Source: Xanthomonas campestris pv. campestris str. ATCC 33913
Lineage (GTDB): Bacteria; Pseudomonadota; Gammaproteobacteria; Xanthomonadales; Xanthomonadaceae
NCBI RefSeq assembly: GCF_000007145.1
Contig: NC_003902.1
Location: forward strand, 280,325 to 312,324
Direction: 5' to 3'
Length of the DNA stretch: 32,000 nt
Shown: one piece after another, positions 12,938-27,004 of the stretch
Numbering within the stretch: the stretch's first letter is position 1
How the letters are laid out: the number at the start of each line of letters is the position of its first letter
Program-made: the position numbers and the translations under genes
Notes under the pieces: model-generated
What the model was told of the DNA's origin: nothing
Seen by the model: only the letters and a program-made list of their open reading frames with translations
The model's database searches: none

Positions 12938-12965
12938 GGGCGGAATCCGTCGGCGGGGAAGTGAT

Positions 12966-12981
12966 TACACTGCACAGTGTA
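12966..12981. promoter_or_regulatory. Perfect 16-bp palindrome, candidate TetR operator
   Basis: TACACTGCACAGTGTA lies in the 88-bp gap between the divergent MBL-hydrolase start (12937) and TetR start (13026). Confidence 0.5.
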
Positions 12982-13025
12982 GTTTCCGCGACGTGAAAGT
13001 AAACTGCCCGGTGTAAAATCAGCGC

Positions 13026-13658: not shown

Positions 13659-13879
13659 GTGCGCATTGCGCGTGCCGGGCGTTGGCTCTTGGATGGCGGG
13701 CACGCGCGCAAGCCGCTACAGATGACCTGCGTCAGTCGGCACGTACGCATGCAAGCCGTGCTGCCTGCCGTCGGGTTGGCGCCCCAACTCCTGGAGACGC
13801 CCAGCTGTGCCGCCCACGACCTGCGGGTCACGCGCTTCCAGCGAAGCGGCCTGCAGGCCGAGCGGCCCCGCAGTCGCCG

Positions 13880-14254
13880 CTAGTCCTTCGACCACACCGC
13901 CAGCGCATAACCGTGCGGATCGGTGAAGTGGAAGCGCCGCCCGCCGGGAAAGGCGAACACCGGCCGGGTGATCTGCCCGCCGGCGGCTTCGATGCGCGCC
14001 TGGCTCTGTGCCAGGTCATCGGAGGCCAGCACCACCAGGGCGCCGCCGGGCTGCGGCGTGCCGTGGAAGAATCCACCGCTGAGCCGGCCATCGCGGAACT
14101 CGCAGTAGTCGGGGCCGTAGTCCTGAAAGGTCCACGCGAAGGCCTCGCCGTAAAAGGCCTTGGCGGCGGCGATCGAGGTGACGGCGAATTCGAGATAGTC
14201 GATACGGTGCTGGGTGTCCACGGCGGGTCCTTGCGAAGGCGAGGGCCCCAGCAT
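13880..14254 (-). CDS. VOC-family (glyoxalase / bleomycin-resistance fold) protein
   Basis: About 124 aa counted from the internal ATG at 14254; a GTG at 14221 is also possible. It has the motifs IDYLEFAVTSIAAAKAFYGEAF and FTDPHGYALAVW. The longer ORF start would run into the AraC gene. Confidence 0.8.
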   Translation of the reverse strand: MLGPSPSQGPAVDTQHRIDYLEFAVTSIAAAKAFYGEAFAWTFQDYGPDYCEFRDGRLSGGFFHGTPQPGGALVVLASDDLAQSQARIEAAGGQITRPVFAFPGGRRFHFTDPHGYALAVWSKD

Positions 14255-14294
14255 GCCGGCCGCGCGCACCTGTGGCTTGGCGAAAACGGCCAAC

Positions 14295-15032
14295 TCACCG
14301 CGCGTGTTGCTGCACCAGCTCGCGCGGCGCCAGCCCGGCCAACTGGCGGGCATCGCGTACCAGGTGCGGCGCATCGCCGTAACCTGCGGCCAGCGCGGCG
14401 TCGGTCAGGGTGCGGTGCCGGTGTGCAATGGCCAAAAAGCGCTGCAGCCGCAGAATCCGCTCCAGGGTCTTGGCGCCATAACCGAAGGCGGTCTGGCAGC
14501 GCCGCCGCAGCGCACGCTCGCTGATGCCCAGCGTGGCGGTGAGCGCGGCCAGCTGCATCGGCATGCCGGCCGCCAGCTGTGCGAACAGCCAGGCCATGGT
14601 CGGGTCGCTGCGGCCAGCGTGCTGCTGACACAGTGCCTGCAGCGTCAGCACGGGGTCGGCGCCGTCTTCGAGCCGGTGCTGCCAGGCCAGCCCGGCGGTG
14701 CCCCACAACGCGTCCAATGCCACGCGCTGGTCGGTGAGCGTGTGCAATGCGGTGCCCAGCACCGCCGTGGCCGCCCCGGGCGCCAGGCGCACACCGCTGA
14801 GCACGCGCCCGGCCGGCACGCAGGCCAGGTTGGCCGCGCGATCCGGCCCGGCCACGAACAGCTGCGCACCATCCCAGATCAGGTCGACATGCGCGTCAGG
14901 CAGCACCCGCACCGGCGCGTCCGCCGCCGCACCCTGGCGAAATCGCCAGCTGCACAGCAGTTGTCCGCGCAACGCGGCAGGTGCGGCGCGTTCGGCATAA
15001 CGGCTCACAAGGTCGGTCATCGTAGCGGGCAT
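14295..15032 (-). CDS. AraC-family transcriptional regulator
   Basis: 245 aa. The C-terminal double HTH (LGISERALRRRCQTAFGYGAKTLERILRLQRFL ... AAGYGDAPHLVRDARQLAG) is typical of AraC/XylS. It lies immediately upstream of the VOC gene on the same strand. Confidence 0.85.
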   Translation of the reverse strand: MPATMTDLVSRYAERAAPAALRGQLLCSWRFRQGAAADAPVRVLPDAHVDLIWDGAQLFVAGPDRAANLACVPAGRVLSGVRLAPGAATAVLGTALHTLTDQRVALDALWGTAGLAWQHRLEDGADPVLTLQALCQQHAGRSDPTMAWLFAQLAAGMPMQLAALTATLGISERALRRRCQTAFGYGAKTLERILRLQRFLAIAHRHRTLTDAALAAGYGDAPHLVRDARQLAGLAPRELVQQHAR

Positions 15033-15066: not shown

Positions 15067-16023
15067 TCAGCGCTCGGAGTGACCACTCTCGTCGTAGCCG
15101 CGCGGGGTGAACAGGTCCGGCTGGATCAGTTCGATAAAGGCGCGTGCCTGCGGCGAGAGGTATTTGCCCTTGCGCACCACCACGCCGTAGCTGCGGGTGG
15201 GGAAATAATCCTTGAGCGAGCGTGTGGCGAGTTTGTCGCGGTCGGCGTCGGTGACGCAGATCGCGGTGACGATGGAAATGCCCATGCCCATCGCCACGTA
15301 TTGCTTGATCACCTCCCAACCGCCCACTTCCAAGGCCACGGTGTAGGGCACGCGTGCCTGTTGGAAGATCAGATCGACCAGCCGATAGGTCACTTGCCTA
15401 CGCGGCGGCAGGATCAGCGGATACGGCGACAGATTCTGCAGCGTAACTATCGGCTTGCTTGCCAGCGGGTGATCGGGCGGGGTGATCAATAACTGTTCGA
15501 AGCGATATACCGGCGCGTAGTTGAGGTCGGCCGGCACGTCCAGCATCGAGCCGACTGCCAGGTCCACCGCATCCTCGCGCAGCAGATCGGTGCCATCGGC
15601 GCTGATGGCGTTGTGCAGTGTCAGGCGCACGTCCGGATGGCGCGCGCGGAAGTTGGCCACGATGCGCGGCAGCAGGTACAGGATGGTGGAGCTGTTGGCG
15701 GCGATATTGAGCTCGCCGGCGTCCAGCCCGCGCACTTTCTCGCGGAAGGCGGCCTCCAGGCCGTCCAGGCTTTCCACCAGCGGCAGCGCCATGTCGTACA
15801 GCAGCTGGCCCTCGCGGCTGGGCGCCAACCGCCGGCCGGAGCGTTCGAACAGCGCCACCCCCAGGTCACGCTCCAGCGCCTGCAACTGCAGGGTCACCGC
15901 CGGCTGGCTCACATATAGTGCCTCAGCGGCGCGTGAGACAGAGCCCAGTCGCACCGTCTGGCAGAACGCGCGCAGCGGCTTGAGGCGGTCGGATTTGTAG
16001 GAAAACCGAGGGGTTGGCGCCAT
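15067..16023 (-). CDS. LysR-family transcriptional regulator, divergent from aceB
   Basis: 318 aa. It has an N-terminal LysR HTH (LRAFCQTVRLGSVSRAAEALYVSQPAVTLQLQALERDLGVALFER) and a substrate-binding domain. Confidence 0.9.
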   Translation of the reverse strand: MAPTPRFSYKSDRLKPLRAFCQTVRLGSVSRAAEALYVSQPAVTLQLQALERDLGVALFERSGRRLAPSREGQLLYDMALPLVESLDGLEAAFREKVRGLDAGELNIAANSSTILYLLPRIVANFRARHPDVRLTLHNAISADGTDLLREDAVDLAVGSMLDVPADLNYAPVYRFEQLLITPPDHPLASKPIVTLQNLSPYPLILPPRRQVTYRLVDLIFQQARVPYTVALEVGGWEVIKQYVAMGMGISIVTAICVTDADRDKLATRSLKDYFPTRSYGVVVRKGKYLSPQARAFIELIQPDLFTPRGYDESGHSER

Positions 16024-16143: not shown

Positions 16144-17766
16144 ATGTCTGCCACCGCCGCTTCCGCCCGTCCCGTCGCCGCTGACCGTGCCACTCCCGGC
16201 GTGTCGCTGACCACCCAGCTGGCGGGCCAGGCCGAGCTGCTCCCCGCTGCCGCGCTGGCCCTGCTGGTGTCGCTGCACCGGGCGATCGAGCCTGGCCGCC
16301 AGCAGCGGCTGGCGCAGCGTCGCAGCCGCCAGGCCGCGTTCGACGCCGGCCAGTTGCCCGACTTCCGCACCGACACCCGTGCCATCCGCGCCAGCGACTG
16401 GCGCGTAGCCGAACTGCCGGCCGCCCTGCAGGACCGCCGGATCGAGATCACCGGCCCTACCGATCCGAAGATGGTCATCAACGCGCTGAACTCCGGCGCC
16501 AAGGTGTTCATGGCCGACTTCGAAGATTCCACCGCGCCTACCTGGCGCAACCTGCTGGCCGGGCAGCGCACGTTGGCGGCCGCGGTGCGCGGCGAGCTCA
16601 CATTCGATGCGCCCAACGGCAAGCACTACGCGCTGCGTCCGGAACACGAACGTGCGGTACTGATCGTGCGCCCGCGTGGCTGGCACCTGGACGAGAAGCA
16701 CGTGTTGATCGATGGCCAGCCGATGGCCGGCGGCCTGTTCGATGCGGCGCTGTTCGCCTTCCACAACGCACGCACGCTGATGGCCAAGGACCGCGGCCCG
16801 TACCTGTATCTGCCCAAGTTGCAGAGCATGGAAGAAGCCGCGCTGTGGGAGACCGCGCTGGCGCATATCGAAGCGATGCTCGGCCTGCCGCACGGGCAGA
16901 TCAAGGTCACCGTGCTGATCGAAACGCTGCCTGCGGTGTTCGAGATGGACGAGATCCTGCACGCCTTGCGCGCACGCATCGTCGGGCTCAATTGCGGCCG
17001 TTGGGACTACATCTTTTCGTACCTGAAAACCTTTCGCGCACATCCGGACCGCGTGTTGCCCGAGCGTGGCCAGGTCACCATGACCCAGCCGTTTCTCAAG
17101 GCGTATTCGGAACTGCTGATCAAGACCTGCCATCGTCGCGGCGCGCATGCGATGGGCGGCATGGCCGCGCAGATTCCAATCAACCACGACGAGGCCGCCA
17201 ACGAACAGGCCATGGCGCGCGTGCGTGCCGACAAGCTGCGCGAAGTCAGCGCCGGCCATGACGGCACCTGGGTGGCGCACCCGGCACTGATTCCGGTGGC
17301 GATGGCGGTGTTCGACGAGCACATGCCCACCGCGCATCAACACCATGTGCTGCGCAACGATGTGCACATCACCTCCGACATGTTGATTGCCACACCGCCC
17401 GGCGGCATCACCCGCGCCGGTTTCGAGGGCAATGTCGAGGTCTGCGTGCGTTACCTGGCCGCGTGGCTGGACGGCAATGGCTGCGTGCCCATCCATAACC
17501 TGATGGAAGATGCGGCCACTGCGGAAATCAGCCGCGCGCAGCTGTGGCAGTGGCTGCATCACGGCCGCCATCTCGATGACGGCACCGCCATCGACCAGCA
17601 CCTGCTCGACACCACTCTGCGGCAGTTGCCGGCGCGCCTGGGCACCACTGCTGGCGTGCCGGGCGGCGCACGTATCGCCGAGGCCATCGGCTTGCTCGAC
17701 CAACTGAGCCGCGCCGAGGAACTGGCCGACTTCCTCACGGTGCCTGCGTATCGCCTGATCGACTGA
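16144..17766 (+). CDS. aceB: Malate synthase A
   Basis: 540 aa. Conserved malate synthase A blocks include [48 protein letters not shown] and the C-terminal DGTWVAHP. Confidence 0.95.
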
Positions 17767-17771
17767 CCGCC

Positions 17772-17807
17772 GCGCGCATGCGCCGGCTACGGCAGGCGCA
17801 TGCGCGC
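17772..17807 (+). other. GC-rich intercistronic stem-loop between aceB and aceA
   Basis: A 13-bp perfect stem (GCGCGCATGCGCC at 17772-17784 and GGCGCATGCGCGC at 17795-17807) encloses a 10-nt loop. It starts 6 nt after the aceB stop and has no following T-run. Confidence 0.6.
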
Positions 17808-17951
17808 ATACCGATGCACCCCAGAACACCCGCGTTGCAGCTGCGTGCTGCGCGCAATGGCAACGCCTTGCCTGCAATCACGCAGCACCGCACCACATCA
17901 CACCGCCCAACACCGCTGCATTTGCCCCATCCCTGCCCGAGGAGACGCACG

Positions 17952-19247
17952 ATGAGCACACCGCTGCAGACCGCCGAACAGATTCAGCATGACTGGGCCA
18001 CCCACCCGCGCTGGGCCGGCATCACCCGCAATTACACCGCCGCCGATGTGGTGCGCCTGCGCGGCACCGTGCACGTCGAGCATTCGCTGGCACGGCTGGG
18101 CGCGGACAAACTCTGGACATCGCTGCATGCCACGCCCTTCGTCAACGCCTTGGGCGCGCTCACCGGCAACCAGGCGATGCAGCAGGTCAAGGCCGGCTTG
18201 AAGGCGATCTATCTCTCCGGTTGGCAGGTGGCGGCCGACGCCAATCTGGCCGGGCAGATGTATCCGGACCAATCGCTGTACCCGGCCGATTCGGTGCCGG
18301 CGGTGGTCAAGCGCATCAACAATACCTTGCTGCGCGCCGATCAGTTGCACCATGCCGAAGGCGATGATGCGATCGACTTCCTGCAGCCGATCGTGGCCGA
18401 TGCCGAAGCCGGTTTCGGTGGCGTGCTCAATGCCTTCGAACTGATGAAGGCGATGATCGAAGCTGGCGCAGCCGGCGTGCATTTCGAGGACCAGCTGGCC
18501 TCGGTGAAAAAATGCGGACACATGGGTGGCAAGGTGTTGGTGCCGACCCGCGAAGCGATCGAGAAATTGAATGCCGCGCGGCTGGCCGCCGATGTGCTGG
18601 GCGTGCCCACCGTCTTGATCGCACGCACCGACGCCGAAGCCGCCGACCTGATCACCAGCGACGTGGACGACAACGACCGCGGTTTCACCACCGGCGAGCG
18701 CACTGTGGAAGGCTTTTTCAAGACCCGCAACGGCCTGGACCAGGCCATCAGTCGCGGCCTGGCCTATGCGCCGTACGCGGATGTGATCTGGTGCGAAACC
18801 GGCAAGCCGGACCTGGAGTTTGCCCGCGCCTTTGCGCAGGCCATCCATGCCAAGTTCCCCGGCAAGCTGCTGGCCTATAACTGCTCGCCCAGCTTCAACT
18901 GGAAGAAGAATCTGGACGACGCCACCATCGCCAGGTTCCAGACCGAACTGGCCAGCTATGGCTACAAGTTCCAGTTCATCACCCTGGCCGGCTTCCACGC
19001 GCTGAATTACGGTATGTTCCACCTCGCCCACGGCTATGCGCGCAGCCAGATGAGTGCCTTTGTCGAGCTGCAGCAAGCCGAGTTCGCGGCCGCAGAGCGT
19101 GGCTTTACTGCGGTCAAGCACCAGCGCGAAGTGGGCACCGGCTACTTCGATGCAGTGACGCAGGCGATTCAGCAGGGGCAGTCCTCGACCACCGCATTGC
19201 GTGGCTCCACCGAAGAAGCACAGTTTCACGGCGAGAAGGCGGCTTAG
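17952..19247 (+). CDS. aceA: Isocitrate lyase
   Basis: 431 aa counted from the ATG at 17952, which is preceded by GAGGAG. It has the ICL signature KKCGHMGGK and conserved N-terminal and C-terminal blocks. The 58 upstream codons of the ORF are Arg/Pro/His-rich and non-coding in appearance. Confidence 0.95.
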
Positions 19248-19437: not shown

Positions 19438-20481
19438 ATGACCTGCCATACCTCCAACGGCGCCGTCGAACCGACTGGAAGCGTTGCCAAAACACTCTCC
19501 GATGGGCTGCATGCCTTGATGACCGCCGAAGAACTCGCGTTTTTCGCGCGTTTCGGCCGTATGCGCGAGATCGCCGCAGGCCAGGCCTTGTTCGAACGCG
19601 GCGCGGTGGGCACGCAGATGTTCATCGTGGTCACCGGCCAGATCGACCTGGATTTCGGCGAAGACCTGATGCTCAAGCATCTGGGCCCGGGCGAGTTCTT
19701 TGGCGAGCTCGGCCTGCTGATCGGCGACCACGCCCGCAGTGCCGGCGCCAGCGCTTCGGTCGACAGCCGCCTGATCGAACTGGCACACGACGATTTCCAG
19801 CGCCTGGTCGATCACGACCCGTCGATGGTGGCGCATTTCCTGCGCCGCTCCATCGTGCGCGTGGTCAATAACGAGCAATTGCTGATCCGCCAGCTGCGCC
19901 GCCGCAACCACGACCTGGAAGCGGCGCTGGACAATCTCTACGTCACCTCGCATCAGCTCAACCACACCGAAGAACTCAGCCGCACCGACGAGCTCACCGG
20001 CCTGCACAACCGCCGCGGCCTTGCGCTGCATTTGCAGGAATGTCGCCGCGGTGGCGGCGCGCCGGGCGTGGGCCTGATCCTGATCGACTGCGACCGCTTC
20101 AAGCACATCAACGACGAGTACGGCCACCTGGCCGGCGACCGCGTGCTGCAGAACGTTGCCCACGCGCTGCGCTCGGTGATCGCCGAAGGCGACCTGGTCT
20201 GCCGCCTCGGCGGCGACGAATTCTGCGTGCTGGTGGCGCAAGGTTCGATCGAGCTGGTGCAGCACATGGGCGAATGCATCGTCAACGCAGTGCAGGCGCG
20301 CCAGGCCAGCAGCCCGGATGGCTGCCACAGTTGCTCGGTGAGCGTGGGCGTCTGCAGCATCGACGCCAGCACCTCCTATAACGACTGGTATACGCGCGCG
20401 GACACTGCGCTGTACCAGGCCAAGCGCCAGGGCGGCAACAGCCTGTGCGTCTATGAAGCATTGCCGTTGGACAACAGCTAA
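19438..20481 (+). CDS. Cyclic-nucleotide-binding (cNMP) domain plus GGDEF diguanylate cyclase
   Basis: 347 aa. It has a CAP/cNMP phosphate-binding cassette (FGELGLLIGDHARSAGASA), a coiled linker, and a GGDEF domain with an intact active site (DELTGLHNRR, RLGGDEFCVLV). The architecture and neighbourhood match the cGMP-responsive GGDEF protein described in X. campestris (XC_0249, locus tag from memory). Confidence 0.9.
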   Translation: MTCHTSNGAVEPTGSVAKTLSDGLHALMTAEELAFFARFGRMREIAAGQALFERGAVGTQMFIVVTGQIDLDFGEDLMLKHLGPGEFFGELGLLIGDHARSAGASASVDSRLIELAHDDFQRLVDHDPSMVAHFLRRSIVRVVNNEQLLIRQLRRRNHDLEAALDNLYVTSHQLNHTEELSRTDELTGLHNRRGLALHLQECRRGGGAPGVGLILIDCDRFKHINDEYGHLAGDRVLQNVAHALRSVIAEGDLVCRLGGDEFCVLVAQGSIELVQHMGECIVNAVQARQASSPDGCHSCSVSVGVCSIDASTSYNDWYTRADTALYQAKRQGGNSLCVYEALPLDNS

Positions 20482-20484
20482 ACG

Positions 20485-23145
20485 ATGACCATCCGCAGCC
20501 ACGCACGCAAGGAGGCGTCGTCGGAAGCGATCCAGGCACCGCGTCTACGCACCCTGTTGTTGACCGACCTGTGCGATTCCACCGCGCTGGTCGAACGCAT
20601 TGGCGACAACGCCGCCGCCGCACTGTTCCGCGAGCACGACCATCTGGTGGTCAAGCTGCAGCAGCATTGGCGCGGGCGATTGATCGACCGCTCCGACGGC
20701 TTGCTGCTGTTGTTCGATCGCCCGATCGACGGCCTGGGCTTTGCGCTGGACTACGCGCGCGGCCTCAAGCTGCTGGGCGAGACGCGCGACCTGGTCGTGC
20801 GTGCGCGCCAGGGCCTGCATGTGGGCGAAGTGCTCACCTGGCGCAACAGCGATGAAGCGGTGAGCATCGGCGCCAAACCGCTGGAAGTGGAAGGCCTGGC
20901 CAAGCCCACCGCGGCCCGCCTGATGTCGATGGCCCGGCCCGGGCAAATCCTGCTCTCGGCGGTGGCCGAATCACTCACCCACCGCGCCGCCCGCGAACTC
21001 GGCACACCCAGCGAGCGCCTGCTGTGGAAATCCCACGGTCGCTGGCGCTTCAAAGGCATGCCCACGCCGATGGAGATCTACGAAGTCGGCGAAGTCGGCC
21101 TCACGCCGCTGCGCGCGCCAAAGAGTTCTGCCAAGGCATGGCGGGATATTCCGTTGTGGCGGCGGCCGGCGGCGTTGCTTGCCGAGGCGCTATTGGTGAC
21201 CACGGTGTGTGTTGCGATCTGGTTCTTCACCCGCGCCGAGCCCGCAATTGCGTTCGCCGAACGTGACTGGGTGGTGGTGGGGGATCTGCGGAACCTGACT
21301 GGCAACACGGTGCTTGACAACTCATTGGAGCAGGCACTGCGGATCAGTCTGGAGCAGTCGCGCTACGTCAATGTGCTGAGCGACATGAAAATGCGTGACA
21401 CGGTGACGCGCATGAAGCGCGACCCGGACCGTGTGGTTGTCGATCGCGCCATCGCCTCGGAGATTGCGATACGTGATGGCGCCAGCGCCGTCATCCTGCC
21501 CACCGTTGCCGAGATCGGCGGCAAGCTGCGCCTGAGCGTGGAGCTGGTGGACCCGCGCACGCAGACCACGGTGTACTCGGAATTCGTGCAGGGAAATGGG
21601 CTGCCGTCTGCGCTCTCTTCGGTTGATCAGCTCACGCGAAAATTGCGTCAGGGCCTGGGCGAAGTAGTAGCCTCGATCGACAAGACCTCCGTCCCGCTAC
21701 CGGCGGTTACCACGGCAAGTCTTGATGCGCTGCGCGCCTATGCACTGGGTGTGGATGCCACGGTCAAAGGTCAATGGCGCGAAGGTCTGGAGCTGTTCAA
21801 TCGCGCCGTCGCCATCGATCCGGAATTTGCATTGGCGTATCTCGGCGCCGCCCGGATCAAGGTGGCGATATCAGACCGCACGGGAGCGCTTCCCTACCTC
21901 GACAAGGCCATTCGCTTTCGACAGCGCCTGCCGCAACGTGATCAGCTGTATCTGGACGCCTGGGCGGCAGAGTTACGTGCGCCGGACAAGGCGCTGTCGT
22001 TGTGGAGAACCCTGGCATCACTGTATCCGGACAACTTCGCCGGGACTGCAAATGCATCGTGGCATCTCTTCGAGGCCAACCGTTTTGCCGAAGCGCTGCC
22101 GTACGCGCAGGCTGCCGATGTACCGCAGGATCCGTTGCGTTCGATTGCCGCCGACCGCGTAGGCCGAATTTTGCTGGCCCAGGGAAAGCCGGAGGCGGCG
22201 CTGCAACGTTTTGCCACCTCCGGTGACGCCGATCGCGCTGGTCCGCTGCGGCGGCAAGCCAACGCGTTGGCGGTGCTGGAACGCTACCCAGACGCGCAGC
22301 GCGTGCTCGACCAGATCGTGGGCAATGGCTACAGCAATGATGATGTGGTCCCGTTGATCGACCGCACCAGCGTGGCGATCGATCAGGCGGATTGGGACGC
22401 GGCACGCAAGGCGATCGCGCGCGGCTTGCAGCACAGTCAACAACACGATGACTTCAACCATCGCCAGTTCTCGGTCATCGCAGCGACCACCGAGGCGTTG
22501 ACCACGCCTTCCAGCGCAACAGCGACGCTGTTGAGGCCAACACTCGATCGCCTGGCCACTGCGGTCGTCAACGAGGATTGGGCAGCGGCCAACCTGCAGG
22601 ACAGTGCAGCCATGGTGCTGATCGTTGCCAGTCAGGCGCAGCGCCATGGCGACGATGGCCTGACCGCGCGTGCGCTTGCAACGATCGAACCGGCACTCGC
22701 ACACGAGACACCGATGCTTGCCGAGCTGCGTACCATCGTCGAAGCGCAGCACCTCGCGCTTGCGGGCGACACCAACGGGGCAATCGCACAGTTGCGGCCG
22801 CGCGAGGACGATCTGTTTCAGTCCCGTGTTGCGCTCTACAAGCTTTTGAGCGATGCGGGGCGGCATGCCGAGGCGTTGGCTCAGGCGCGTTGGCTCACGC
22901 AACAGCGCGGGCGCGCTTACATCGAAGCCAACGCATCGCAGACATTGCAGCCGCTCAACGTTGCGGATGCGCGTCTTGCCCAGTTGTGGGTTGCCGAGTC
23001 GTTGTACGCGCTTGGCCGCAACCAGGCGGCGCGCGAGCAGGCGCTGGCGTTTGTTCGCGCCTGGCCCGTCACGCGTCTGCCTGCTTACCTGCGCAGCAGG
23101 GTGGAGCGGATACTTTCCGATTCGAAGGCAAAGATGACCGTGTGA
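20485..23145 (+). CDS. Membrane-anchored class III nucleotidyl (guanylate/adenylate) cyclase with a large periplasmic/TPR-like C-terminal region
   Basis: 886 aa starting 3 nt after the GGDEF gene stop. The N-terminal cyclase homology domain has LLLTDLCDSTALVERIGD, GDGLLLLF-like DGLLLLFD, and GLHVGEV. One TM helix follows (AALLAEALLVTTVCVAIWFF), then about 630 aa that include TPR-like helical repeats. It corresponds by synteny to the guanylate cyclase XC_0250 of X. campestris (from memory). Confidence 0.88.
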   Translation: MTIRSHARKEASSEAIQAPRLRTLLLTDLCDSTALVERIGDNAAAALFREHDHLVVKLQQHWRGRLIDRSDGLLLLFDRPIDGLGFALDYARGLKLLGETRDLVVRARQGLHVGEVLTWRNSDEAVSIGAKPLEVEGLAKPTAARLMSMARPGQILLSAVAESLTHRAARELGTPSERLLWKSHGRWRFKGMPTPMEIYEVGEVGLTPLRAPKSSAKAWRDIPLWRRPAALLAEALLVTTVCVAIWFFTRAEPAIAFAERDWVVVGDLRNLTGNTVLDNSLEQALRISLEQSRYVNVLSDMKMRDTVTRMKRDPDRVVVDRAIASEIAIRDGASAVILPTVAEIGGKLRLSVELVDPRTQTTVYSEFVQGNGLPSALSSVDQLTRKLRQGLGEVVASIDKTSVPLPAVTTASLDALRAYALGVDATVKGQWREGLELFNRAVAIDPEFALAYLGAARIKVAISDRTGALPYLDKAIRFRQRLPQRDQLYLDAWAAELRAPDKALSLWRTLASLYPDNFAGTANASWHLFEANRFAEALPYAQAADVPQDPLRSIAADRVGRILLAQGKPEAALQRFATSGDADRAGPLRRQANALAVLERYPDAQRVLDQIVGNGYSNDDVVPLIDRTSVAIDQADWDAARKAIARGLQHSQQHDDFNHRQFSVIAATTEALTTPSSATATLLRPTLDRLATAVVNEDWAAANLQDSAAMVLIVASQAQRHGDDGLTARALATIEPALAHETPMLAELRTIVEAQHLALAGDTNGAIAQLRPREDDLFQSRVALYKLLSDAGRHAEALAQARWLTQQRGRAYIEANASQTLQPLNVADARLAQLWVAESLYALGRNQAAREQALAFVRAWPVTRLPAYLRSRVERILSDSKAKMTV

Positions 23146-23423
23146 TTGGTCTTTTCGGTCAGGTAGCTTTGCAGTTCCGCACGCGCCTGGGCGATGTCTT
23201 CCTTCGATGCAAGCTGTTGAGTGGTCATGCAGAAATAGGGCTCGCCTGCGACCGGTGCGCTGTCGTTCGCGCTCGCGCCACACGCGCCGATCTTGGCCAG
23301 TGCTTGTGCCGGATTGCAGCGAAAGCAGTCACGGAAGGTGTCGTCACTGGAAAGCAGTTCAAGCAGCTTGTCAGCGGTGGTTGCGTCTAACGGGGCATGG
23401 ACGTTGTTGGCTGGGTCGGTCAT
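23085..23423 (-). CDS. Small Nif11/NHLP-like protein, candidate RiPP precursor peptide
   Basis: 112 aa counted from the internal ATG at 23423. The N-terminal helical segment TTADKLLELLSSDDTFRDCFRCNPAQALAKIG resembles Nif11/nitrile-hydratase-type leader peptides. It has four Cys (33, 36, 48, 65), including a CxxC pair. It is divergent from, and 86 bp away from, a SagB-type dehydrogenase. The last 61 nt overlap the convergent cyclase gene. Hand-counted GC is 57 of 100 nt at 23151-23250. Confidence 0.65.
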   Translation of the reverse strand: MTDPANNVHAPLDATTADKLLELLSSDDTFRDCFRCNPAQALAKIGACGASANDSAPVAGEPYFCMTTQQLASKEDIAQARAELQSYLTEKTNHTVIFAFESESIRSTLLRR

Positions 23424-23509
23424 CGGTCTGTTCTGAAGGGTGAGGGTGGGTGCAACGCCAGTGAGCTGACACAATATCGACCGTGCTCATGCGTCCTTGA
23501 GAGATCCCC

Positions 23510-24706
23510 ATGCAACTACGTCGCTGTGCCACGCTATTTTTTGAACTTCGCGACGCTGCGGTGTTTGATCTCTCGCAGCTGCTCGCAGGAGGCGATGGTC
23601 TGCGTCGGCGCATCCGTTGCTTTGCGTTGGCGCCGCATCTGGATGCAGAGGTCGAAATCGCCGCAGCCGATCGCGAGTGGCTGAGTACATTGAGCAGCGT
23701 GCGCTGGTGCGCTGTGGATCAGCTGCCATCCTTGCCCGAGTCGCTTGATCAGTTGATCAAGCAAGGCCTGGTGATCAGTGATCAGCCAGAGCACGCACAG
23801 CACCGCAGCAACGACGAACAGGTCCAGCAGCAGCGCTGGTGGCCTCTGGCCGCGCTGTGGCATCGCTTTGCACGCTGGCGAGGCGAAGACAGCGTGGCAA
23901 CGATGGAAGCACAGGGCATGACAACGGCCGAAGGCATGGTGGAGCGTCTCGGCGCACCTCCGCCAGAGGTGGTGGACCGTGGCGACGCTGGCCAGCGAAT
24001 CCCGTTGCCGCGTGCCACGCCAGGGCCTTTTGATGCGCTGTTGGCCCGCCGCGTGACCTGCCGCAATTTCGACCCGCAACGTTTGCTCTCTGCCGAATTG
24101 TTGGGGCAGATGTTGGAGCGCAGCGTCATGGCGCGTGCGCGCGTCGAGGTGGGGCATGACACGGCGTTTCTAAAGAAGCCGGTTCCCTCCGGGGGGAGTC
24201 TGCATCCCACGGAAACCTATCTGCTGGTGCAGCGTGTGCAGGGAGTGGACAGTGGGCTGTACCACTATCGCCCGCTGGAGCACGCGCTTCAACGGTTGCC
24301 ATCGCCTGCGCAGCCGCTTGCTGCTGTTGCGCGCAATGCCCTGTCAGGGCAGCACTGGTTTGCCGATGCGCCGGTGCTGATGATCCTGGCGCCACGCTTC
24401 TTGCGTAGCTTCTGGAAGTATCGCAATCACGCCAAGGCCTATCGCGCGATGATCCTGGACGTAGGGCATATCGCACAGACCGTCTATCTCAGTGCGACCG
24501 ATCTGGGTTTGGGCGCGTTTGTCACCTCTGCCATCAATGAGGTCGACATCGAACAAGTGCTCGGACTCGACGGGCTGCAGGACGGGCCATTGGCCATCTG
24601 CGGATTTGGCTGGCGTGCCGAGCAGATGCGCAACACGGAGCTGGACCCTGGCGGTGCGATCTGGTCCCAAGCAGGTAATCCAGCGCAGGCTGGTAACCAC
24701 GTGTAA
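23510..24706 (+). CDS. SagB-type (nitroreductase-fold, FMN-dependent) dehydrogenase, putative peptide-maturation enzyme
   Basis: 398 aa. The C-terminal 200 aa or so carry SagB/ThcOx-type motifs: ARRVTCRNF, KKPVPSGGSLHPTETYLLV, LYHYRP, ILDVGHIAQTVYLSATDLGLGA and ICGFG. I do not recognise a domain in the N-terminal 165 aa or so. Confidence 0.85.
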   Translation: MQLRRCATLFFELRDAAVFDLSQLLAGGDGLRRRIRCFALAPHLDAEVEIAAADREWLSTLSSVRWCAVDQLPSLPESLDQLIKQGLVISDQPEHAQHRSNDEQVQQQRWWPLAALWHRFARWRGEDSVATMEAQGMTTAEGMVERLGAPPPEVVDRGDAGQRIPLPRATPGPFDALLARRVTCRNFDPQRLLSAELLGQMLERSVMARARVEVGHDTAFLKKPVPSGGSLHPTETYLLVQRVQGVDSGLYHYRPLEHALQRLPSPAQPLAAVARNALSGQHWFADAPVLMILAPRFLRSFWKYRNHAKAYRAMILDVGHIAQTVYLSATDLGLGAFVTSAINEVDIEQVLGLDGLQDGPLAICGFGWRAEQMRNTELDPGGAIWSQAGNPAQAGNHV

Positions 24707-24864
24707 GGCCAATTTCAAGCTGTCCGCGCCAACGATCCGAGAGGCGAGAGCGAGGCGCGCCACACGCAGCGCGTGCGCCAGACATCGGTTCCAGAATAGA
24801 TAAAACACTGGCTGGCCCCAACGATACGGCCTGAATTTTCGCGCTGCAGAAATAACCACGTAGA

Positions 24865-24900
24865 GCGGTTCGTCGCCAGCGTCCACTGGCGACGAACCGC
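24865..24900 (-). terminator. Strong hairpin downstream of the S9 peptidase gene (candidate terminator)
   Basis: A 14-bp perfect stem (GCGGTTCGTCGCCA / TGGCGACGAACCGC) encloses an 8-nt loop and lies 11 nt beyond the peptidase stop (24911). Only a weak U-tract (TTATTT) follows on the minus strand. Confidence 0.6.
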
Positions 24901-24910
24901 ATCGCCAGGC

Positions 24911-27004
24911 CTACTTCCGAATCGCCTGCGTATGCGTCTTCAATGCATCGGCCAGGCCAGTGATGCGGTCTGCGCCCTCGGGCACGGTGATGCTGGAGCC
25001 TTCGAAGTCCGCGCCGATGGGTTGTGCGCGGCCGCCCAGGCATTGGCTCAGGAACCCTTCGGTCACTGCGTTGAACGCCTTGCTGTTCTCCGGGCGCTGG
25101 AAGCCGTGGCCTTCATCGGGGAACAGCACGTAGGTCACCGGGATGTTCTTGGCCTTCATCGCGTTGACGATCTGGTCGCTTTCGGCCTGTTTGACGCGCG
25201 GGTCGTTGGCGCCCTGGCCAATCAGCAGCGGTTTGCTGATCTTGTCGACGTGGCTGAGCGGCGAGCGCTCGGTGAGCCACTGCTTGCCGGCGGCGGTGGC
25301 CGGGTCACCCATGCGCTTGGTCAGTTGCTTGTAGAAGCTGGCCCAATAGGGCGGCACGGTGCCGAGCAAGGTGTTGAGGTTGGCCGGGCCCACGATGTCC
25401 ACGCCGCACTTGAACGCGTCCGGGGTGAAGGTCATGCCCACCAGCGTCGCGTACCCGCCGTAGCTACCGCCCATGATGGCGACGTCCTGCGGCGTGGTGA
25501 CGCCCTGCTTGACCGCCCATTGCACCGCGTCGAGCAGGTCGTAGTGCATCTTGCCGGCCCACTCGCCGTTGCCGGCGTTGGTGAACGCCTTGCCGAAGCC
25601 GGTGGAGCCGCGGAAGTTCACCGACAGCACTGCGTAGCCGCGGTTGGCCAGCCATTGCTCGTACGCGCCATAGCCATAACTGTCGCGCGCCCACGGGCCG
25701 CCGTGCACGAACAGCACCAACGGCACTGCTTTATCGGCCTTGCCATCATGGTTGCTGTCGGCCTCGGCCGGTAGCGACAGGTAGCTGACCAGTTTTAGGC
25801 CGTCGCGTGCGGCAATCTCCTGCGGCCACATCGGCACCAACGGTTTGCCCTCCAGCGCCGGGCGTGCGGAGAACAGCTTGGTGAGCTTGCCGCCATCGGC
25901 ACGGTCGTAGCGGTAGTAGGTCAGCGGGGTTTCGGCGGCCGAATAGGCGACGATCCAGGTGCGGTCATCGAGCGTGCGTGCGGCAATGCCGGCATCGCCT
26001 GGGCCGAGGGATTTGAGCTTCTGCAGGTCGGCGGCGATGCTGGTGTCCAGCGTCTTCCACTCTTCGCGCAGATAGTCGGTGGACACGGCCTGCACCACGC
26101 CGGTCTTGGGGTCGTTCAAGGTGCTGCCGGCATCGGCGCGCGCGTCTTCGAACAGCAGCGTGCGTGCATTGCTGGCGGTGTCGATCGCGTACAGCGCGGC
26201 GGTATCGCGGTTACGCGAGTCCAGCATGTAGAGCGTCTTGCCGTCATCGGTGAGGCCGGCCGGCGCGGTATTGGTGACATCCTCGAACGGGATGCGGTCC
26301 ACGCTCTTCCAACCCTTGCCCTCGGGCACCAGTAACTCGCGGCCGGCGTCATCGGTGGCGCGGGTGGCGTAGCGCAGCTGGTAATTGCCATCGAGCAGGT
26401 AGCTGTCCAGGCTGTCGGTGTTCTTCTGCACCAGGGTGCGTGTGCCCGAGGCCAGTTCGACCTTGTACAGGTCGTGCCATTTGGCATCCCGATCGTTCAT
26501 GCCGACCATGATCGCGTCCGGATGCTGGTCGCTGATGCCGTACACCTCGGCGTTGGTCTTCTTGAACGGGGTGAGGTCCTTGCTGCTGCCATCGCTGAGG
26601 TTGACGGCATAGAGGTGGAAGTCCTCATCGCCGCCGGTGTCGCGCAGATAGAGCAAGGTGTCGCTGTGATAGGTCCAGTAATAACTGCGGATGCCGCGTG
26701 CGGTGTCCTTGGTGATGGCGCGCGCCTTGTCCGGCGCGTCGACCGGCGCCACCCACACGTTGAGCACGCCATCCAGTGGCGCGACCCAGCTGAGATATTT
26801 GCCATCGGGGCTGATGCGCACGCTGGCGCGCTCGGGATTGCCGAACAGGGCGTCGCGCGGGATCAATTCGGGCGCTGTGGCCGGCGCAGTCGCTGCCGGT
26901 GCCGCAGCGGGGGCGGCGGCGTCAGCGGTGTTGGCGGGCGCGGATTTGTCGCTGCAGGCGCTGAGCGCCAGGAGCAGGCTGGATGCGAGAAGCAGGCGTT
27001 GCAT
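24911..27004 (-). CDS. S9-family serine peptidase (prolyl oligopeptidase / dipeptidyl aminopeptidase type), lipoprotein
   Basis: 697 aa. It has a lipobox (LLLALSAC), an N-terminal beta-propeller-like region, and a C-terminal alpha/beta hydrolase domain with the triad contexts GGSYGGY (Ser), GANDPRV (Asp) and DEGHGF (His). Confidence 0.9.
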   Translation of the reverse strand: MQRLLLASSLLLALSACSDKSAPANTADAAAPAAAPAATAPATAPELIPRDALFGNPERASVRISPDGKYLSWVAPLDGVLNVWVAPVDAPDKARAITKDTARGIRSYYWTYHSDTLLYLRDTGGDEDFHLYAVNLSDGSSKDLTPFKKTNAEVYGISDQHPDAIMVGMNDRDAKWHDLYKVELASGTRTLVQKNTDSLDSYLLDGNYQLRYATRATDDAGRELLVPEGKGWKSVDRIPFEDVTNTAPAGLTDDGKTLYMLDSRNRDTAALYAIDTASNARTLLFEDARADAGSTLNDPKTGVVQAVSTDYLREEWKTLDTSIAADLQKLKSLGPGDAGIAARTLDDRTWIVAYSAAETPLTYYRYDRADGGKLTKLFSARPALEGKPLVPMWPQEIAARDGLKLVSYLSLPAEADSNHDGKADKAVPLVLFVHGGPWARDSYGYGAYEQWLANRGYAVLSVNFRGSTGFGKAFTNAGNGEWAGKMHYDLLDAVQWAVKQGVTTPQDVAIMGGSYGGYATLVGMTFTPDAFKCGVDIVGPANLNTLLGTVPPYWASFYKQLTKRMGDPATAAGKQWLTERSPLSHVDKISKPLLIGQGANDPRVKQAESDQIVNAMKAKNIPVTYVLFPDEGHGFQRPENSKAFNAVTEGFLSQCLGGRAQPIGADFEGSSITVPEGADRITGLADALKTHTQAIRK

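Follow-up and report, generated by a model that had tools for sequence, protein, structure and literature searches.

What does a small, NHLP-related protein do when it is encoded divergently from a SagB-related dehydrogenase in Xanthomonas campestris? A sequence-only reading of this DNA had described the two genes as an orphan RiPP-like pair. They are not an orphan: the peptide and dehydrogenase genes are part of a four-gene block with the orthologs of XC_0250 and XC_0249, the members of a cGMP to c-di-GMP virulence pathway in X. campestris (An et al., 2013). We tentatively regard the locus as a four-gene signaling module rather than a stand-alone RiPP pair.

Gene Content of the Locus

The window (the whole 32-kb stretch of DNA that was analyzed) contains the following block.

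19438..20481, plus strand: protein of 347 aa with cNMP-binding (PF00027, E 1e-18) and GGDEF (PF00990, E 5.5e-40) domains
20485..23145, plus strand: receptor-type class III nucleotidyl cyclase, membrane protein of 886 aa (TIGR04510)
23085..23423, minus strand: NHLP-related small protein of 112 aa, putative precursor or substrate (TIGR04509)
23424..23509: divergent intergenic region of 86 bp that separates the small gene from the dehydrogenase gene
23510..24706, plus strand: SagB-related FMN dehydrogenase of 398 aa (TIGR04511, TIGR03605, PF00881)

The divergent arrangement across an 86-bp gap was reproduced at these coordinates, and the motifs quoted previously (ADKLLELLSSDDTFRDCFRCNPAQALAKIG, RRVTCRNF, PSGGSLHP, YHY, GHIAQTVYL, and LGLGA) are all found in the translations. 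The cyclase ATG follows the stop of the GGDEF gene by 4 bp, and the last 61 bp of the small gene overlap the 3′ end of the cyclase gene convergently (23085–23145). Neither a sigma-70 consensus match nor a CRP/Clp-type box at ≤3 mismatches was present in the intergenic region (23424–23509). The reported lack of a YcaO, an E1-like partner, and an ABC exporter in the 32-kb window was borne out by profile checks, and a C39 peptidase was likewise not found there.

The Dehydrogenase and the Small Protein

The 398-aa ORF scored 564.2 bits against TIGR04511 (cut-off, 240) and 129.2 bits against TIGR03605, the SagB domain (cut-off, 78.4), and matched PF00881 with an E-value of 1.7e-30. Its assignment as a SagB-type protein is upheld by these matches and by an FWKY motif, which aligns with FWKY of ThcOx and represents the Lys-Tyr motif that azoline oxidases have. 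The codons of the catalytic-type Lys303-Tyr304 lie at 24416–24421, and both residues are invariant in 15 diverse homologs; in McbC, Lys201-Tyr202 abstracts the Cα proton while hydride passes from Cβ to FMN. The protein has a two-domain architecture like that of BmdC and ThcOx, with an N-terminal α/β domain (aa 1 to ~105), a linker, and a nitroreductase-fold oxidase domain (aa ~175–370), and the best Foldseek matches were BmdC, ThcOx, and McbC (E 1e-12 to 2e-11). These closest structural relatives have peptide substrates and a peptide-recognition-like domain, and the N-terminal domain of the dehydrogenase resembles a RiPP recognition element, a role that it may also play.

The minus-strand ORF at 23085–23474 encodes 129 aa if a TTG start is used, while the ATG at 23423 gives a protein of 112 aa that begins with MTDPANNVHAPL..., a start shared by its homologs. 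It scored 113.6 bits against TIGR04509 (cut-off, 34; E 3e-33), and both NCBIfam families named in the sequence-only reading proved correct. The exact sequence was found on 558 X. campestris contigs, and 413 clusters of the family were recovered from 1.84 billion representatives. The protein can be divided into two parts.

23289..23423, minus strand: leader-like N-terminal part, aa 1–45, helical bundle (AF2 model and sequence comparison)
23088..23288, minus strand: variable part, aa 46–112 (family alignments)

In the AF2 model, helices cover residues 14–44 (pLDDT 86–93); overall, the structure models are of moderate confidence (pLDDT 75 and 70). Residues 1–45 matched nitrile hydratase alpha weakly (E 0.02), and the fold matches of the model to NHLP-type precursor structures were weak and not significant (E > 3). 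The proposed Nif11/NHLP-type leader is supported to the extent of a faint, though consistent, relationship with NHLP-clan proteins and nitrile hydratase alpha; the classical NHLP and Nif11 leader models gave no match at E ≤ 1. The small protein has no double-glycine site and no signal peptide.

The variable part consists of a linker of variable length (6–39 aa in the family), Cys65, a LASKEE helix, a TVIFAFE strand, and a basic tail, and contains at least one Cys in 167 of 170 family members. The remainder had been described as Cys/Ser/Thr-containing, and there are indeed four Cys in the protein (C33, C36, C48, and C65); however, only C65 (codon 23229–23231) is conserved, being near-invariant in the family but missing from the alternative X. 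campestris allele and from 3 of the 170 members, and the region is not Cys/Ser/Thr-rich, unlike an azole-forming core. The idea of a precursor with leader and core fared similarly. Family-wide, conservation extends along almost the entire small protein, without the pattern of a leader and a hypervariable Cys/Ser/Thr core, but the split is seen at short evolutionary distance: residues 1–45 are nearly invariant and residues 46 to the end diverged in six Pseudoxanthomonas loci, and the C-terminal two-thirds diverge among loci whose dehydrogenases are 92–99% identical in the pairs tested. The observation of the earlier reading is confirmed and its interpretation partly supported.

The Cyclase and Its GGDEF Partner

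The sequence-only reading had overlooked two further conserved genes of the block, which lie directly upstream of the pair. The cyclase scored 1187.8 bits against TIGR04510, named “putative peptide modification system cyclase” by NCBIfam (cut-off, 400), and is 99% identical to X. campestris proteins. Because its 886-aa length, N-terminal sequence, residue numbering, and cNMP-GGDEF neighbor are the same, we identify it as the ortholog of the guanylate cyclase XC_0250; the 347-aa protein is the ortholog of XC_0249, a cGMP-binding and cGMP-activated diguanylate cyclase (An et al., 2013). The peptide/dehydrogenase pair is nowhere mentioned in that report, and the literature yielded no experimental work on it, in agreement with the earlier reading. 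Neither XC_0251 nor XC_0252 appears in the literature or in those tables of the XC_0250 mutant that are available in text form. The cyclase can be divided as follows.

20542..21054, plus strand: cytoplasmic catalytic domain, ~aa 20–190, conserved output part
21163..21234, plus strand: single predicted transmembrane helix, aa 227–250 (Kyte-Doolittle 19-residue maximum, 2.20)
21235..23142, plus strand: predicted periplasmic sensor region, aa 251–886 (TPR Pfam matches)

The catalytic domain aligns with class III cyclases of solved structure, namely Ma1120 (E 1e-10) and Rv1900c (E 1e-8), and its mean pairwise distance is 0.22 over 56 loci. A single hydrophobic segment of this kind, near aa 230, occurs in 64 of 64 orthologs, with a net charge of +3 before and about 0 after it, and the sensor region, which contains TPR repeats, is predicted from this positive-inside charge to lie in the periplasm. 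Its most variable stretch is aa 561–720 (about 22165–22644).

Conservation Among Genomes

Gene neighborhoods were compared at 80 genome loci (68 Lysobacterales and 12 actinobacterial). The peptide gene adjoins the dehydrogenase gene divergently in all 80, in line with the expectation that the two stay together in related genomes, and 19 loci have 2–5 tandem small-protein paralogs per single enzyme. At all 68 Lysobacterales loci the cyclase is present or its position is lost to a contig end, and the order GGDEF-cyclase-peptide-dehydrogenase holds in every one with enough flank. All 12 actinobacterial loci (Streptomyces, Kitasatospora, and Kribbella, often with 2–5 precursor paralogs) have the pair without the cyclase or any other conserved neighbor; therefore the pair can work without this receptor. 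Neither a YcaO within 10 kb (two phyla) nor an exporter, protease, or immunity gene is conserved with the pair among the 80 loci. Because Lysobacterales synteny reaches aceA/aceB/LysR (53–56 loci), vertical inheritance alone accounts for part of the linkage. The peptide-dehydrogenase-cyclase trio is nevertheless kept in distant metagenomic contigs, in which the remaining neighbors differ and the dehydrogenase is only 40–47% and the cyclase 28–34% identical. The convergent overlap of the cyclase and small-gene 3′ ends is widespread among loci.

Cassette Replacement and Co-variation

Some X. campestris strains, carrying a minority allele, have a replaced 3.7-kb cassette at the same site, as seen by comparison of the window with an allele of X. 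campestris pv. raphani (L085; CP155923.1).

21190..24900: cassette replaced as a unit, comprising the cyclase transmembrane helix and sensor, the small protein, and the dehydrogenase (window versus L085)

The flanks are 95–97% identical in DNA to L085, and the interior is not alignable. The left breakpoint falls in the transmembrane helix, with nucleotide identity falling from 0.98 to 0.63 across 21140–21259, and the right one lies just past the dehydrogenase gene. Protein identity in the flanks is 100% for the GGDEF protein, 97–100% for cyclase aa 1–200, and 98.7% for the S9 peptidase, versus 20–60% for the sensor, 36% for the peptide, and 45% for the dehydrogenase within the cassette. In summary, the replaced parts are 20–49% identical, against 97–100% for the flanks with the catalytic domain. 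The three replaced parts are all Pseudoxanthomonas-like in affinity, and each continues to match its family model. Breakpoints may simply fall where homology exists (the conserved catalytic domain and the S9 gene).

Mosaics recur in Xanthomonas, Lysobacter, and Pseudoxanthomonas. The catalytic domain is 88–100% identical and sensor aa 561–720 only 19–51% identical in seven mosaic pairs; in the recurrent mosaics the GGDEF protein is 88–100% and the peptide 38–78% identical. The hypervariable tract always takes in the cyclase sensor and sometimes leaves out the enzyme. Strains and species carry different, non-alignable versions of sensor and peptide, with or without the enzyme, on a near-identical background. 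Because the pair has been exchanged between strains together with the outer sensor domain of the cyclase, we suggest that it makes the signal for the virulence pathway.

The two parts of the peptide also co-vary with different partners. The N-terminal part (aa 1–45) tracks the N-terminal half of the dehydrogenase (aa 1–170; partial r 0.35), while the C-terminal part (aa 46–112) tracks cyclase aa 401–886 (partial r 0.61) and not the dehydrogenase (partial r −0.08). Whole-gene mirror-tree comparison was mixed, the peptide-cyclase Spearman correlation being no better than that of the peptide with rate-matched dehydrogenase columns. Gene order confounds this co-variation, since the part of the small gene that encodes the C terminus borders the 3′ end of the cyclase gene and the part for the N terminus lies toward the dehydrogenase gene, and recombination tracts alone could explain both the double dissociation and the joint swaps.

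Alternative Explanations

It is unlikely, though the most serious of the alternatives, that the pair makes an end product of its own, for example an antimicrobial or some other modified peptide or small protein with bioactivity, while the cyclase sensor binds something else and the adjacent cGMP/c-di-GMP genes at most regulate the pair or are co-regulated with it. The pair-alone actinobacterial loci with their paralogs would fit, Os1348, a related NHLP-clan protein, contributes to antibiotic activity, and bacteriocin loci are typically hypervariable too. Against this, immunity, exporter, and protease genes are not conserved with the pair, the hypervariable tract follows the sensor even without the enzyme, and the genes given in the text of the supplement as changed in the XC_0250 mutant do not include the pair. 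A much smaller chance is given to the alternative implicit in the sequence-only reading, in which the enzyme oxidizes genuine azolines in a thiazole/oxazole pathway and the gene for the YcaO cyclodehydratase lies at another place in the genome; the SagB match, the Lys-Tyr motif, the nearest structures, and the near-invariant Cys point that way, but no YcaO is conserved nearby or found in the window, and a single conserved Cys, absent from a family member that still scores well, is not a Cys/Ser/Thr-rich core.

We also consider it improbable that pair and cyclase are neighbors only through inherited synteny and recombination hitch-hiking, with diversifying selection acting on the cyclase sensor only (e.g., for varied environmental ligands) and dragging the small gene along. 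The syntenic aceA, aceB, and LysR genes, physical contiguity as an account of the co-variation, swap breakpoints at the nearest conserved DNA, and the actinobacterial pairs all favor it, whereas the trio persists in very distant contigs, NCBIfam curators, judging from the family names, had independently grouped the three families into one system, the 3′ overlap is widespread, and several independent alleles begin to diverge at one shared leader/core junction, which random tract ends would not predict. Marginally less probable still is that the small protein serves the flavoenzyme as an obligate partner or regulatory subunit rather than as a substrate, the complex acting on or sensing a small molecule or redox state, whether or not it is coupled to the cyclase. 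The precedent is AlbA, a nitroreductase-fold α,β-dehydrogenase that requires AlbB, a helical subunit of ~100 aa; the end-to-end conservation, the folded helical part with one near-invariant Cys, and the persistence of Os1348 in cells as a full-length protein agree with it. Several diverged paralogs per enzyme, however, are more in keeping with substrates than with a stoichiometric subunit, a C-terminal two-thirds that diverges rapidly beside a 99% identical enzyme is hard to reconcile with a structural subunit, and the nearest structural relatives of the enzyme act on peptides.

Proposed Mechanism

The explanation that we favor, still tentatively, is that the peptide is the substrate of the dehydrogenase, which probably alters it by a 2-Da dehydrogenation, and that the product is the cognate ligand of the receptor-type guanylate cyclase. 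The N-terminal domain of the dehydrogenase would bind the helical aa 1–45, and Lys303-Tyr304 with FMN would take two hydrogens off a residue in aa 46–112, for which an azoline would not be required. Either the whole modified protein or a fragment would get to the periplasm via an unlinked route and be recognized by the TPR-containing sensor of the single-pass membrane cyclase. By analogy with the XC_0250/XC_0249 literature, the cyclase domain would make cGMP, which would activate the cNMP-GGDEF neighbor to form c-di-GMP; the c-di-GMP output of XC_0250/XC_0249 promotes biofilm formation and virulence. Weighing against this scheme, the sensor is predicted to be periplasmic, yet the peptide lacks a signal peptide and the locus a conserved exporter or protease, and the link between pair and cyclase rests on gene context and sequence comparison. 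If the scheme is true, the pair supplies the signal for the cGMP to c-di-GMP virulence pathway of X. campestris.

A precedent for the chemistry is PflD, whose nitroreductase domain, without YcaO association, makes dehydrophenylalanine on an NHLP-type precursor. The allelic versions of sensor and peptide may represent specificity groups, and in this respect the locus can be likened to the comQXP and agr pherotype loci.

Gene Organization of the Locus

The genes considered here form a single block, with positions in the window as follows:

19438–20481, forward strand: GGDEF protein gene (cyclic-nucleotide-binding and GGDEF domains), ending 4 bp before the cyclase gene
20485–23145, forward strand: cyclase gene, 886 aa, convergent on the small gene and overlapping its last 61 bp
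23085–23423, reverse strand: small gene, ATG at 23423 and end at 23085, 112 aa
23510–24706, forward strand: dehydrogenase gene, 398 aa, separated from the small gene by a gap of 86 bp

An alternative TTG start at 23474 gives a small protein of 129 aa, and public records contain annotations of either form. The ORF layout and all motifs quoted in an earlier, sequence-only reading of this DNA were found in the sequence, and the NCBIfam families that it had put forward for the small protein and the dehydrogenase were correct and strong, both being above cut-off in the HMM scan. The small protein scored 113.6 bits against TIGR04509 (cut-off 34, E 3.3e-33, profile positions 1–86 of 87), and the dehydrogenase scored 564.2 bits against TIGR04511 (cut-off 240, profile positions 1–380 of 380), 129.2 bits against the SagB domain TIGR03605 (cut-off 78.4), and E 1.7e-30 against Pfam PF00881. 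The same reading had regarded these two genes as an orphan pair, which was not borne out, because a TIGR04510 cyclase converges on the small gene and the GGDEF protein is encoded just upstream. The cyclase matched TIGR04510, the "putative peptide modification system cyclase," with 1187.8 bits (cut-off 400, profile positions 1–813 of 814).

All three families have database entries, under whose names the genes are already annotated, and the cyclase and the GGDEF protein have been published; the pair of small protein and dehydrogenase is therefore known but uncharacterized. In the literature searched, we found no functional study under the TIGR04509–TIGR04511 accessions or product names, and no papers that deal with XC_0251/XC_0252 or with SagB in these genera.

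A terminator-like hairpin (23136–23151) is located at the cyclase stop codon, inside the coding end of the small gene. The ends of tblastn matches suggest that several related loci have an overlap similar to that of the convergent cyclase and small genes (23085–23145, 61 bp), and the two transcripts may influence one another by antisense. No CRP/Clp-type operator was matched at ≤3 mismatches in the 86-bp divergent region (23424–23509), the window as a whole having fewer such matches than shuffled sequences, and a c-di-GMP feedback loop via a CRP/Clp site in the divergent promoter was rejected for lack of an operator match there. A sigma-70 consensus promoter was not found in this 86-bp region either.

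Malate synthase and isocitrate lyase genes (16144–19247) and a divergent LysR regulator gene (15067–16023) lie directly upstream of the GGDEF gene. The region beyond them is a second strain-variable junction close to the locus: a metallo-beta-lactamase-fold gene is found there in the window (~11885–15000), type I-F cas3 and cas1 genes in the X. campestris pv. raphani locus L085 (CP155923.1, locus positions 1–2508), and metallo-beta-lactamase-fold, TetR, glyoxalase, and AraC-type genes in L086 (1–2544), in each case upstream of the shared LysR/malate synthase genes.

The Cyclase and the Published cGMP Pathway

XC_0250 of X. campestris 8004 is an 886-aa protein with a cyclase domain and TPR repeats, and was reported to synthesize cGMP, from the behavior of mutants and, for residues 1–220, in vitro (An et al., 2013; PMC3770947). 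XC_0249, once it has bound cGMP, raises c-di-GMP synthesis, and mutants of either gene lose biofilm formation and virulence; the TPR part was described as "of uncharacterised function," and the input signal was left open (An et al., 2013; PMC3770947). The window cyclase agrees with the published XC_0250 in N-terminal sequence and residue numbering, and it is 99% identical to X. campestris database entries. Because this ORF is XC_0250, a reported cGMP maker, the "cyclase" of the NCBIfam trio is a nucleotide cyclase, and its interpretation as a peptide macrocyclase was rejected. Neither a retraction nor an independent replication of the 2013 paper was found in the literature searched.

Among class III cyclases of solved structure, Ma1120 (E 1e-10) and Rv1900c (E 1e-8) are homologous to the catalytic domain; the Pfam cyclase model stayed short of E 0.001 against this ORF. 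In the alignment to these structures (window 20485–21084), the metal-binding Asp residues are D28 and D71, the transition-state Arg is R145, and the Asn position is occupied by Pro141. The residues named for XC_0250 were D41, D71, L157, and A161 (An et al., 2013; PMC3770947), so that, judging from the alignment, the published assignment seems to be out of register at three of the four positions. A single hydrophobic segment near residue 230 was found in all 64 full-length cyclase orthologs, with a net charge of +3 before it and ~0 after it. Because of this single segment and the charge asymmetry, the catalytic domain is predicted to be cytoplasmic and the TPR region, of 640 residues, periplasmic.

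The Small Protein

Homologs of the small protein formed 413 clusters in a HMMER search of 1.84 billion representative proteins, all of them ~90–130 aa long and matching over almost their whole length. In 66 diverse members, a conserved helical N-terminus (LLxLLSxDDxFRxxFxxDPxxAL) is followed by a linker of 6–39 residues, a near-invariant Cys, a conserved LASKEE helix, and, at the C-terminal end, a strand-like TVIFxFE segment and a short basic tail; none of the conserved positions is a double-glycine site. The linker region contains one to three Cys residues in 167 of 170 family members, the other 3 having no Cys. Cys65 as a universal modification site is weakened by these three members and by the Cys-free alternative allele of X. 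campestris pv. raphani.

The AlphaFold model of the small protein (pLDDT 75.5) has confident helices at residues 14–44 and 74–89 and a poorly defined linker. The sequence-only reading had proposed an NHLP/Nif11-type leader, for which there were hints at the level of the clan only, as neither NHLP (TIGR03793) nor Nif11 (TIGR03798) matched the small protein at E ≤ 1 in the NCBIfam scan. The small-protein profile found nitrile hydratase alpha in the PDB at E 0.02, and the Os1348 model matched the window small protein at E 0.0086 and that of the alternative allele at E 4.8e-5. Foldseek with the small-protein model gave no significant match (best E 3.5), the non-significant top matches being thematically consistent (nitrile hydratase alpha, proteusin precursors, SonA, and Os1348). 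The indications of kinship to nitrile hydratase alpha and NHLP-type precursors are thus weak but consistent.

The Dehydrogenase

The azoline oxidases BmdC, ThcOx, and McbC are closest to the dehydrogenase by both sequence and fold (Foldseek E 1.5e-12 to 2e-11). The invariant FWKY of the dehydrogenase (K303-Y304) aligns with the FWKY of ThcOx and, together with the TIGR03605 match, marks a SagB-type, putatively FMN-binding domain with the catalytic Lys-Tyr motif. In McbC, the Lys-Tyr pair takes the C-alpha proton while a hydride moves from C-beta to FMN, a chemistry that in principle does not need an azoline.

Conservation is high over the N-terminal 105 residues, for which strands and then helices are predicted, an order that agrees with the RRE-like domain ahead of the oxidase in BmdC/ThcOx. 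From this predicted topology and long Foldseek alignments to BmdC/ThcOx, the domain may be RRE-like. The profile of residues 1–105 found nothing in the PDB at E ≤ 10, and the domain matched nothing in Pfam at E ≤ 10 and no known RRE at the sequence level.

Distribution and Neighboring Genes

Relatives of the dehydrogenase were found in 382 species in a scan of one genome per species, and the best 80 loci were fetched. The sequence-only reading had treated the small ORF and the dehydrogenase as a divergent pair, and the neighborhood survey with an HMM of the small protein confirmed this arrangement in relatives: in 80 of these 80 loci, the small gene is the immediate upstream neighbor of the dehydrogenase gene and points away from it. 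Two to five tandem copies of the small gene were present in 19 of the best 80 loci. Among the arrays inspected (L029, 8061–9949; L035, 8108–10191; L041; L010), there are five copies in Kribbella antibiotica, four in Lysobacter soli, and three in each of the two others; the copies diverge over their whole length and keep the architecture.

The order GGDEF, cyclase, peptide (reverse strand), and dehydrogenase was found at every Lysobacterales locus with enough flank among 68 from Xanthomonas, Lysobacter, Stenotrophomonas, Pseudoxanthomonas, Thermomonas, and others. Distant metagenomic contigs have the same arrangement, with dehydrogenases only 40–47% and cyclases 28–34% identical. The 12 actinobacterial loci (Streptomyces, Kitasatospora, and Kribbella) have the pair only, and no conserved third gene was found at them. 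The actinobacterial dehydrogenases (L009–L014, L017–L019, L024, L028, and L029) are 53–58% identical to the Xanthomonas enzyme; because this is about as close as other Lysobacterales genera, sequence comparison suggests transfer of the two-gene cassette between phyla.

An S9-family peptidase gene (24911–27004, reverse strand; 697 aa, lipoprotein-like N-terminus MQRLLLASSLLLALSAC) lies just downstream of the dehydrogenase gene. It is beside the dehydrogenase gene in only ~24 of the 68 Lysobacterales loci, at variable positions; this adjacency is limited to Xanthomonas and Pseudoxanthomonas, and in some Lysobacter loci the gene is located elsewhere. Given this adjacency and its position outside the replaced cassette described next, it was not counted as the missing protease of the system, though it could process or degrade a periplasmic peptide.

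Replacement of the Cassette Between Strains

A different version of the locus occupies the same chromosomal site in some X. campestris pv. raphani genomes (L085 and L086). The alternative allele is 95–98% identical to the window DNA up to ~21170–21200 and again from ~24900, and between ~21200 and ~24900, a cassette of 3.7 kb, it cannot be aligned to the window except for one 68% patch.

Amino acid identity between the window allele and the alternative allele
GGDEF protein: 100%
Cyclase, residues 1–200: 97–100%
Cyclase, from the transmembrane helix onward: 20–60%
Small protein: 36%
Dehydrogenase: 45%
S9 peptidase: 98.7%

The replaced L085 proteins are still members of the same three families, and the nearest versions of all three are from Pseudoxanthomonas. 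The window allele is the commoner one, its exact peptide being found on 558 contigs and the other allele on ~27. The alternative small protein (L085, 10521–10832, reverse strand) has no cysteine, yet scores 84.6 bits for TIGR04509, and it matches the Os1348 NHLP-clan model better than the window small protein does.

Similar mosaics were found in six further locus pairs, from the Xanthomonas translucens group, Lysobacter, and Pseudoxanthomonas. Across the seven pairs, including that of X. campestris, the GGDEF protein and the catalytic domain are 88–100% identical, while identity falls to 19–51% in cyclase residues 561–720 and to 38–78% in the small protein. The dehydrogenase is replaced in the larger swaps (40–64%) and 90–99% identical in the smaller ones. 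At six Pseudoxanthomonas loci, where the dehydrogenases are 92–99% identical in the pairs tested, residues 1–45 of the small protein are almost invariant and the remainder is divergent, with one to three Cys residues.

Distance matrices for 56 loci indicated that the N-terminal part of the peptide co-varies with dehydrogenase residues 1–170 (partial r 0.35; with the sensor, i.e., the predicted periplasmic TPR part of the cyclase, 0.13), and the C-terminal part with cyclase residues 401–886 (partial r 0.61; with the dehydrogenase, −0.08). In the whole-gene mirror-tree comparison of peptide and cyclase, the Pearson partial r was 0.45–0.53, and the Spearman coefficient was no better than that of rate-matched dehydrogenase columns.

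A Candidate Peptide Ligand for the Cyclase

This pattern of variation is that of a specificity cassette. In the pherotype loci of Gram-positive peptide quorum sensing (comQXP of Bacillus subtilis; agrBDCA of staphylococci), the genes for a small precursor, for the enzyme that modifies it, and for a membrane receptor are neighbors. The precursor and the sensor part of the receptor, and in some cases the enzyme as well, fall within a hypervariable tract, the output domain being conserved. Because the variation resembles that of these loci, we favor a model in which the conserved leader of the small protein would be recognized by the fairly conserved dehydrogenase, and the variable part would travel with the cyclase sensor, the output domain remaining constant; the small protein, once modified by the dehydrogenase, would be the cognate ligand of the receptor-type guanylate cyclase. 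We judge this ligand/receptor model to have a little less than an even chance of being correct. Its extension to the Lysobacterales, which include major plant pathogens and Stenotrophomonas, is more tentative: a YcaO-independent, SagB-matured peptide might act as a strain-specific extracellular signal that is read directly by a receptor-type guanylate cyclase, with pherotype-like allelic groups, and feeds c-di-GMP, biofilm formation, and virulence.

Several observations speak against the ligand/receptor model. A signal peptide was not found in the small protein, and a C39-peptidase ABC exporter or other exporter/peptidase domain was neither found in the window nor conserved in related loci, leaving the small protein with no export signal and no linked exporter; we know of no dedicated exporter encoded with comQX. 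Recombination tracts alone could yield the same co-variation, because the C-terminal end of the peptide gene abuts the 3' end of the cyclase gene and the N-terminal end faces the dehydrogenase, and the swap breakpoints may merely follow available homology. The Actinobacteria have the pair without the receptor. It is conceivable, if unlikely, that the pair makes an autonomous bioactive peptide. Association of the pair with the cyclase by mere linkage is improbable. The glyoxylate-shunt genes (malate synthase and isocitrate lyase) and the LysR gene upstream are also syntenic with the signaling block in 53–56 Lysobacterales loci, so that part of the linkage of the block is plain inheritance; against linkage alone stands the same arrangement in the distant metagenomic contigs.

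We give about the same low weight to the small protein as an accessory subunit of the dehydrogenase. The AlbAB cyclodipeptide oxidase is likewise a nitroreductase-fold enzyme encoded beside a small helical protein of ~100 aa; it is an FMN enzyme that performs alpha,beta-dehydrogenation of amino acid side chains, and AlbA needs AlbB, a four-helix subunit that completes the active site and is not a substrate. AlbA, however, consists of a minimal "hub" of the nitroreductase fold and has no N-terminal domain, unlike the window dehydrogenase, and no sequence relationship of the pair to AlbAB was found. A hidden azole pathway, which the kinship to azoline oxidases might bring to mind, is very improbable. 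As the sequence-only reading had stated, no YcaO or E1-like partner is encoded in the 32-kb window, and no YcaO-like conserved neighbor was found within 10 kb at the 12 actinobacterial and 68 Lysobacterales loci; the small protein has one near-invariant Cys only and no Cys/Ser/Thr-rich core of the azole type.

Novelty and Implications

As far as our searches show, what is new here is the connection of the NCBIfam "peptide modification system" with the XC_0250/XC_0249 pathway, the predicted periplasmic-sensor topology of the cyclase, the within-species replacement of the cassette and its recurrence, and the leader/core behavior of the small protein at short evolutionary distance. Few cGMP pathways of bacteria are tied to virulence, that of XC_0250 among them, and the pair provides concrete candidates for making the input of XC_0250. 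SagB-type function without a cyclodehydratase could be tested simply, with two genes, in the dehydrogenase family (~2,400 proteins), one YcaO-free nitroreductase domain of this kind having been shown to make a dehydroamino acid (2025 preprint, PMC12636437). If the ligand/receptor model is true, the locus encodes a bacterial counterpart of peptide-activated receptor guanylate cyclases, and if the alleles are specificity groups, Gram-negative plant pathogens have a peptide-based, strain-discriminating communication whose cyclic-nucleotide output is a possible target for interference. If they are not, the locus is still a diversification hotspot that needs another explanation.

Comparison with Known Systems

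All three window proteins are clear members of the NCBIfam three-gene "peptide modification system," and the genes are adjacent as the family names imply; the naming points to a peptide "cyclase," whereas the window protein is a nucleotidyl cyclase of class III, located in the membrane and carrying a TPR sensor. The 886-aa and 347-aa genes encode the same proteins as XC_0250/XC_0249, or near-identical orthologs. The paper on that pathway does not mention the two downstream genes, and the link to the pair is made here from comparative data only. With the azoline oxidases McbC, ThcOx, BmdC, and SagB, the dehydrogenase has the FWKY Lys-Tyr in common, and its two-domain layout resembles the RRE-like domain plus oxidase of BmdC/ThcOx, but neither a cyclodehydratase partner nor an azole-type core was found with the window pair.

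The nitroreductase domain of PflD/PosD has no YcaO partner and acts on the NHLP-type precursor PflA/PosA of the Os1348 family, PflD producing dehydrophenylalanine (−2 Da) in an NHLP-clan precursor without a double-glycine site (bioRxiv 2025, PMC12636437). By analogy, the window pair would also combine a nitroreductase-fold flavoenzyme without YcaO and an NHLP-clan-like small protein without a double-glycine site. PflD is fused to an MNIO domain and has HEXXH, GNAT, and transporter genes as neighbors, whereas the window dehydrogenase is free-standing, with its own N-terminal domain and signaling proteins as neighbors.

The likeness to comQXP and agr lies in the presence of precursor, enzyme, and membrane receptor together and in a within-species polymorphic tract over precursor and sensor with a conserved output domain, linkage being a possible confounder. 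There the enzyme is a prenyltransferase or peptidase and the receptor output a histidine kinase; here they are a SagB-type flavin dehydrogenase and a nucleotidyl cyclase, an enzyme type and an output that are not known from other peptide signal/modifying enzyme/receptor loci with specificity groups. Those systems are Gram-positive, and secretion, signaling, and cross-specificity in this Gram-negative host are putative, by analogy. Among animal receptor guanylate cyclases, the natriuretic peptide receptors and GC-C (with guanylin or heat-stable enterotoxin) have peptide ligands. Their extracellular domains are unrelated to the TPR region of the cyclase, and the ligand proposed here is hypothetical; the common logic would be that of a single-pass membrane protein with a ligand domain outside and a class III cyclase inside that makes cGMP.
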